Positions 41,266 through 41,321 of a stretch of 64,000 nt of DNA are shown in pieces (position 1 is the first letter of the stretch; every line of letters starts with the position of its first letter). The notes under the pieces were generated by a model that did not search any database, had not been told where the DNA came from, and saw nothing but the letters and a program-made list of their open reading frames with translations. The translations under genes were made by a program, and so were the position numbers. Origin of the DNA: a virus (Duplodnaviria; Caudoviricetes); IMG/VR virus record IMGVR_UViG_3300042481_000164, positions 32,001-96,000 of that record; one strand, 5' to 3'.

Positions 41266-41321
41266 TGTGGACAGCATATGGACTCGAACCATCATCACCT
41301 GATCCATTTCAGTAACCGCCC
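41266..41321 (-). ncRNA. Anticodon-less tRNA-like RNA with G3-U70/A73
   Basis: GGGCGGT/GCTGTCC-A acceptor, CTGA-AATGGA-TCAG D-like arm, ATGG-TTCGAGT-CCAT T-arm. Confidence 0.6.

Follow-up and report, generated by a model that had tools for sequence, protein, structure and literature searches.

Transfer RNA-like elements without an anticodon are known in principle, examples being t-elements, the stable RNAs of phages T5 and T4, and mascRNA. The mammalian mascRNA and the tRNA-like-miRNA units of MHV68, an animal virus, are excised by RNase P and RNase Z, and these cuts set the ends of the adjoining RNA; both keep a short anticodon-like stem, whereas the element described here has none. In plant mitochondria, t-elements carry the motif GGTTCRANYCC and direct RNase Z and RNase P cuts that create mRNA ends, and some excised t-elements carry a non-encoded C, CC or CA (PMC1920247). 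In the record of phage T5 (AY543070), three RNAs (RNA1, RNA2 and RNA3) are annotated as 'tRNA-like stable RNA with unknown functions'. They have tRNA-like ends around a non-tRNA middle and are 73-144 nt long, and the 3' end of RNA2 consists of a T arm, an acceptor strand, an A and then CA.

The element described here, referred to as the mini unit, lies in a 64,000-nt stretch of phage DNA (the window, bases 32001-96000 of a 120.8-kb IMG/VR virus record). The GC content of the window is 30-34%, the PHROG matches on the phage include virion structural proteins, DNA polymerase, HNH endonuclease and helicase, and the public runs containing the stretch are lake-water, freshwater and sediment metagenomes. 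Between about 14 kb and 48 kb every gene is on the minus strand, and the sole large non-coding gap of this gene block (40785-41373, about 590 nt) is flanked by a small ORF upstream and by a 171-aa endolysin-like gene (40269-40784, minus strand, phrog_21890). Read along the minus strand, the gap contains the following parts:

41326-41373, minus strand: two hairpins, CTCTG...CAGAG and GCAGG...CCTGC, past the small upstream ORF and its stop codon
41266-41321, minus strand: mini tRNA-like unit, 54 nt to the discriminator A at 41268, plus CA
41039-41267, minus strand: module Y, a structured RNA of about 229 nt, flush behind the mini unit and flush before the next tRNA-like unit
40921-41038, minus strand: tRNA-like unit of 118 nt with a 51-nt expansion replacing the anticodon loop, matching Rfam RF00005 at 40.1 bits
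40785-40920, minus strand: trailer module Z with hairpins, reaching the ATG of the endolysin-like gene

The minus-strand sequence from 41321 to 41266 quoted in the original prediction agrees letter for letter with the genome, as do its helices, and the closing (acceptor) helix, D-position hairpin, canonical T arm and absent anticodon arm that it described are all present in the sequence. The mini unit is made up as follows:

41321-41315 with 41275-41269, minus strand: closing helix of 7 bp, GGGCGGT/GCTGTCC, with three G.U/U.G pairs
41312-41299, minus strand: D-position hairpin CTGA-AATGGA-TCAG, preceded by TA and with GG in the loop
41298-41293, minus strand: 6-nt linker GTGATG, joining the D-position hairpin to the T arm
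41292-41278, minus strand: T arm ATGG-TTCGAGT-CCAT, with a canonical T loop and a 4-bp stem
41277-41276, minus strand: AU spacer between the T arm and the closing helix

Like t-elements, the mini unit is a non-canonical tRNA-like structure in which a GGTTCRANYCC T arm is joined by an acceptor-like helix, and it would likewise be part of a longer transcript. The ends of t-elements are the ends of neighbouring RNAs, whereas for the mini unit such borders are read from DNA. The mini unit further differs from t-elements in belonging to a bacterial phage instead of an organelle, in having its anticodon arm deleted outright to leave 54 nt, and in flanking a structured non-coding RNA ahead of an endolysin-like gene, and its processing is putative. 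With their expanded middles and lengths of 73-144 nt, the T5 RNAs therefore resemble the longer units of this phage family, whereas the mini unit lacks any middle and has no sequence similarity to them. The 3' end of T5 RNA2 is like that of the units described below, and both are found in a phage island of tRNAs or non-coding RNAs. In T5 (L091, AY543070: 30284-30644 and 40848-41566), RNAIII, RNAI, RNA1 and RNAX abut each other or tRNA-His/tRNA-Arg, a base-to-base layout of stable RNAs and tRNAs that parallels the island with Y. While T5 encodes a complete set of tRNAs, ARAGORN accepts none in this phage unless an intron is allowed.

Two further systems resemble the mini unit at its acceptor end. 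In the tRNA-like domain of tmRNA, too, there is no anticodon, the D region is reduced, the third pair of the acceptor helix is G.U, and A73 and a T arm are present; unlike tmRNA, the mini unit has no mRNA-like domain, pseudoknots, tag ORF or CCA, and its phage has no SmpB. Synthetic alanine minihelices (Francklyn & Schimmel 1989, cited in PMC9976931) likewise consist of the top half of a tRNA and do not decode, and G3.U70 with A73 is the alanine mark in both. The minihelices are artificial and have no D arm, whereas the mini unit is natural and has a D-position hairpin.

Relatives were obtained as 80 IMG/VR loci fetched with the endolysin as anchor, about 25 of which are of this phage group. 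Homologues of the mini unit and of Y were sought by pattern scans of IMG/VR, JGI metagenomes and GTDB genomes and by blastn against INPHARED, and a covariance model built on the mini unit (R1) was run across 231 kb of family loci.

The T arm carries the case for tRNA ancestry. In the 64-kb window, the T-loop motif GGTTCGAGTCC (tRNA T-arm signature GGTTCRANYCC) is seen twice, on the minus strand and in this one non-coding gap, the second copy being in the 118-nt unit at 41038-40921; because two copies are seen against 0.10 expected, the tRNA ancestry of the mini unit is not a matter of chance. A 7-bp closing helix of equal quality is found in 29% of shuffles of the flanks, so the closing helix alone is not significant. 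Chance was thus rejected as the origin of the T arm, but not as that of the closing helix taken alone.

The closing helix is the only robust part of the predicted fold (pair probability at least 0.97). The cloverleaf-like fold (-14.2 kcal/mol) is not the minimum free energy structure, which prefers a rod-like interior with UGGAUCA/UGGUUCG pairing and is 2 kcal/mol better than the fold with D and T arms; the z-score of the minimum free energy, -1.16, is unremarkable. Between the T loop and the discriminator there are 13 nucleotides, compared with 12 in every other unit of the family. The stack thus comprises 13 layers (7 bp, U.U, G.A and 4 bp) in place of the 12 bp (7 + 5) of a canonical tRNA, and the U.U and G.A within it could shift or weaken cleavage by RNase P and RNase Z.

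Other identities were considered for the mini unit. A canonical tRNA was ruled out, as only 6 nt separate the D-position hairpin from the T arm and there is no cloverleaf. ARAGORN, which had been suggested as a check on the original prediction, made no call on the mini unit either by default or with introns allowed, and Rfam at E<=10 gave no match to it, RF00005 included. The 8/4 or 9/3 geometry of allo-tRNAs (PMC5389517) is inapplicable because the mini unit has no anticodon arm. A coding role was rejected for the 45-aa minus-strand ORF at 41170-41307, which starts inside the mini unit, since its frame is not conserved: the L008 counterpart reaches a stop after about 29 codons (read by hand), and the variation there tracks stems. 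The plus-strand ORF at 41278-41430 was rejected as well, as it spans mosaic breakpoints.

In the collections searched, the mini unit has a sole homologue, at L008:2608-2663 in a related phage (the same contig as L082). Pattern scans of IMG/VR, JGI metagenomes and GTDB genomes and blastn against INPHARED returned no further homologue, and three other pattern matches in IMG/VR were discarded as unrelated coding sequence. Model R1 scores the two copies at 92.9 and 92.5 bits and nothing else in the 231 kb of family loci above 21 bits, the remaining hits there being ordinary T arms only. The DNA contigs that span the mini unit are without variants.

Five of 59 positions distinguish the two copies. 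Three of the five substitutions are in the closing helix, where pair 6 changes from G-C in the window to A-U in L008 and pair 7 from U.G to C-G, and zero pairs are broken; the other two affect one base of the D-position loop and one of the linker. When significance was simulated with random transitions, 2.8% of trials gave three or more changes in the closing helix with every pair intact, and 1.9% gave one or more compensatory double changes, again with every pair intact. The covariation is limited to the closing helix because there are only two copies and their D-position and T stems are invariant. Homology between the window and L008 starts 1-3 nt from the first base of the helix, and the upstream contexts are unrelated.

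Module Y lies immediately behind the mini unit. An alignment of five copies of Y with RNAalifold gave 65 pairs, 14 of them with compensatory changes, and its closing helix begins 2 nt past the discriminator of the upstream unit; no Rfam family matches Y. In every context, Y is preceded by a tRNA-like T arm and acceptor strand with the identical junction A | CA-ACTTCG. Five different tRNA-like units are found before it:

mini unit: window and L008
unit of 138 nt: L021, L083, L084, L087 and an RNA-library contig of run X15
unit of 120 nt: L085
unit of 75 nt: L086
another T arm and acceptor: contig of lake run X8

In the window, L021, L085 and L086, another tRNA-like unit starts flush at the 3' border of Y; in L008 its place is taken by a terminator-like hairpin. 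Across six contexts, module borders (of Y and of homology breakpoints) match both unit ends; these are borders at the DNA level. Scans of IMG/VR and JGI metagenomes for Y returned extra copies only behind other units, and scans of GTDB genomes were without any match. The original prediction had named an intact ordinary tRNA in relatives, as expected from simple decay, as the finding that would count against it; relatives instead have other non-canonical tRNA-like units at this place, or the whole block is missing. Among these tRNA-like modules, which do not decode, can replace one another and act as punctuation between structured RNAs, the mini unit is thus the shortest.

The best explanation is that the mini unit is a minimal tRNA-like processing handle, which would free Y and split the transcript before the endolysin gene. 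We give this reading a probability of roughly 0.5, with the structural elements, the conserved junction with Y, the interchange of upstream units and the one compensatory change as its basis, all of them read from sequence. It is preferred over a chargeable mimic because the slot directly before Y holds other odd tRNA-like units in relatives, and it is rated best because the acceptor/T-arm stack and the elbow are kept in every unit, nothing else of a tRNA being left in the mini unit, and because t-elements and the T5 RNAs provide precedents. Counting against a handle are the 13-layer stack, the rod-like interior favoured by the minimum free energy, the restriction to two copies and the dispensability of the RNA block described below. 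RNase Z and the CCA-adding enzyme accept the acceptor/T-arm stack. RNase P clamps the elbow and measures the T-arm/acceptor stack and not the anticodon arm (PMC4919913).

In such a scheme, the island would be co-transcribed with the neighbouring minus-strand genes, host RNase P would cleave at the 5' end of every tRNA-like unit, and an RNase Z-type activity would cleave past the discriminator A. The GG in the D-position loop could dock on the T loop. Module Y (about 229 nt) would be freed with a base-paired 5' end, and the endolysin message would be parted from the messages upstream. What is left over would be the mini unit, perhaps with a CCA tail, and a role for it once released is conjectural. 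As in t-elements, a GGTTCRANYCC T arm is combined with a closing helix; simple scans inside the gap detected no intrinsic terminator, and sigma-70-like promoter sites at background level only.

The island around the mini unit is a mosaic. The closest relatives (L002-L007) pass from a terminator-like hairpin and T tract directly to the endolysin; in L002, L011 and L019, a T tract and then the endolysin start come after the second hairpin, and in the window an inserted RNA block replaces the T tract. A block of about 460 nt (40885-41342), the mini unit included, is missing in L003 and in some contigs of lake run X8. The joints run from 40881/40884 to 41343, and the block is an indel polymorphism. 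The RNA block is dispensable, since the closest relatives and some of the lake population do without it. In the remaining relatives, the gap is filled with different modules.

Most of the island units keep the acceptor, the D arm and the T arm, with an anticodon arm that is either expanded by 15-90 nt or unrecognisable, and the acceptor stem AGTCAGG/CCTGACT with A73 is common to many of them. The unit at 40921-41038 is the sole Rfam tRNA match in the window, and ARAGORN reports it only when introns are allowed, finding nothing in the whole phage genome otherwise. Its acceptor, anticodon-stem (with a stem extension) and T-stem pairs covary in L011, L013 and L015. Judging from the compensatory changes in this unit, the tRNA-like units of the island are under structural selection. 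The 51-nt element of the same unit has the conserved core GGAGTCATGACCTGA, and the L013 version has a 28-nt internal duplication. The ARAGORN label 'tRNA-Gly(tcc) with intron' looks unreliable, there being no U33.

The mosaic structure also gives rise to the strongest competing account, in which the mini unit is a recombination scar. Shuffling of the island would take place at tRNA-like repeats, and a tRNA-like unit would have lost its anticodon arm through a deletion or an illegitimate cross-over, the remnant being carried along with Y as an inert by-product. Although unlikely in our assessment, this is a serious rival because there are two copies only and the block is dispensable. The strong mosaicism of the region and the indel polymorphism of the 460-nt block are in keeping with it, as are the restriction to two copies across IMG/VR, JGI metagenomes and GTDB genomes, the frequency with which chance gives such a closing helix, and the T-arm/acceptor spacing, which is one off. 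The mini-unit copies are 91% identical while the endolysins of the two phages are 65% identical, which fits recent transfer equally well as selection. Positions 5-25 of the mini unit match the 75-nt unit of L086 at 16 of 21 bases, in its D-loop/anticodon region, as after a 5' deletion, an alignment that is suggestive only of such an origin. A 5' deletion would however require about 4 of 7 positions in the 3' strand to have changed to fit the new 5' strand, and matching changes of this kind therefore imply selection. The scar account is also at odds with the exact unit boundaries at both ends, with the covariation of all other island units and with the closing-helix substitutions, all three of which keep pairing, one pair through a double change.

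The alanine features that led the original prediction to a chargeable mimic are present. G1-C72, G2-C71, G3.U70 and A73 are found in the mini unit and are unchanged in L008; G4-C69 and CCA are missing. The bacterial alanine identity set comprises A73, G2-C71, G3.U70, G4-C69 and G20 (PMC9976931). The fourth pair is C4-G69 in both copies, and 3' of the helix the genome reads A-CAA. Because the stack has 13 layers, the number G3:U70 hinges on the RNase P cut site: the G.U is the third pair if RNase P cuts before G41321, and a 12-bp ruler would make it pair 2:71. Pairs of G and U are frequent in such stems (three of seven in the mini unit), and the same-slot units of relatives have AGTCAGG/CCTGACT or AGTTAGG/CCTAACT, without G3.U70. 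Within the slot, alanine identity is therefore not conserved.

As a decoy, the mini RNA would be processed, given a CCA end by a host enzyme and charged by the host AlaRS through G3.U70 and A73. Once charged, it would mimic a tRNA without decoding and thereby sequester SmpB, EF-Tu, AlaRS or a tRNA-targeting defence toxin that attacks the acceptor end. This would be compatible with a processing role, and we consider it improbable. The invariance of the four marks although pairs 6 and 7 changed speaks for it, as does the presence of three of them (A73, G2-C71 and G3.U70) among the determinants listed above, and AlaRS ignores the anticodon. The missing G4-C69 and CCA, the slot-mates without the marks and the absence of SmpB from the phage leave the decoy idea without specific support. 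Searches of the 120.8-kb phage genome gave no match to SmpB (PF01668), the CCA-adding enzyme (PF01743) or RtcB. The proposed link to tmRNA and SmpB is not supported: the ARAGORN tmRNA search returned 0 genes and Rfam had no tmRNA match. A tmRNA tRNA-like domain is excluded by size and content, the mini unit being 54 nt in all with no tag frame or pseudoknots between its D and T parts.

It is also conceivable, at very low probability, that the mini unit stays uncut as the 5' domain of a longer RNA composed of the mini unit and Y, for instance as a tRNA-like cap that protects or recruits, comparable to tRNAs with a covalent link to some GOLLD RNAs. The mini unit and Y move jointly into two unrelated contexts (window and L008), and an RNA-library contig (X15 record 3) bridges the junction of a tRNA-like unit with Y in a variant. 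The phage RNAs GOLLD and ROOL are found close to tRNA islands, and the GOLLD linker can contain tRNAs (bioRxiv 10.1101/2024.12.08.627333). Against a joint RNA, Y is found with five different upstream units and therefore needs no specific partner, and GOLLD, ROOL, YrlA and any Rfam family were rejected for lack of a match; even with E<=1 as the threshold, neither the window nor five related loci matched the GOLLD and ROOL models. The bridging contig is, moreover, blind to processing state, and RNA libraries may include contaminating DNA.

Y and the 118-nt unit are both covered by RNA-library contigs, which derive from variants having a different unit upstream; the mini unit is covered by none. 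As assembled contigs they cannot show RNA ends, and uncovered parts prove nothing. One X15 RNA contig ends 1 nt away from where the 118-nt unit starts, a single weak hint.

A long shot is an 'empty scaffold', in which a family of tRNA-scaffold RNAs would keep an anticodon-independent identity (Ala-type in the mini unit, Leu-type AGTCAGG...A73 in relatives) while the anticodon arm is deleted or exchanged for variable RNA modules, the mini unit being a CCA-tailed, alanylated, non-decoding decoy for host factors or for defence toxins that target the acceptor end of tRNAs.

What is new at this locus is the 54-nt minimal form with a D-position hairpin, the way expanded units can stand in for it at one conserved junction, and the uncharacterised RNAs next to it. 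If the processing reading is true, uncultured lake phages punctuate their transcripts with stripped-down tRNA shapes, and this punctuation would carve structured non-coding RNAs (Y, and module X in relatives) from long transcripts right before a lysis gene. The principle of t-elements and T5 stable RNAs would then extend to a 54-nt minimum, and the parts of a tRNA that the phage needs would be revealed. If the alanine marks are functional, the mini unit would be a natural chargeable minihelix, so far mainly a laboratory construct. The island also represents RNA classes without annotation (Y, X and units with expanded anticodon arms) that gene finders and Rfam overlook.

Several of these classes recur in other relatives and metagenome contigs. 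The first part of Z is found behind a tRNA-like unit in L008 too. Arrays of tRNA-like units of 72-120 nt are present at L085:1-1205 and L086:370-1530, both metagenome contigs. All of their units have AGTCAGG/CCTGACT and A73 and several have a common Leu-type D arm, while their middles are wholly unlike, which would be odd for real tRNAs of different specificity. Module X, also conserved and structured, occurs at L015:2470-2746, L011:2556-2796, L021:1920-2145, L008:2000-2385 and L085:235-470 and is not present in the window. It contains the paired blocks TGTGTTG/CAACACA and CAGATTG/CAATCTG and a hairpin ACAGG-TGCTT-CCTGT followed by TATTTAT, and it had no Rfam match at E<=1. Its 3' border is exactly at the 5' end of a tRNA-like unit. 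Finally, a 79-nt tRNA-like unit with a 6-nt insert lies at L026:2423-2501; ARAGORN assigns it the anticodon UUA, which reads the stop UAA, and it may be a suppressor in this relative.
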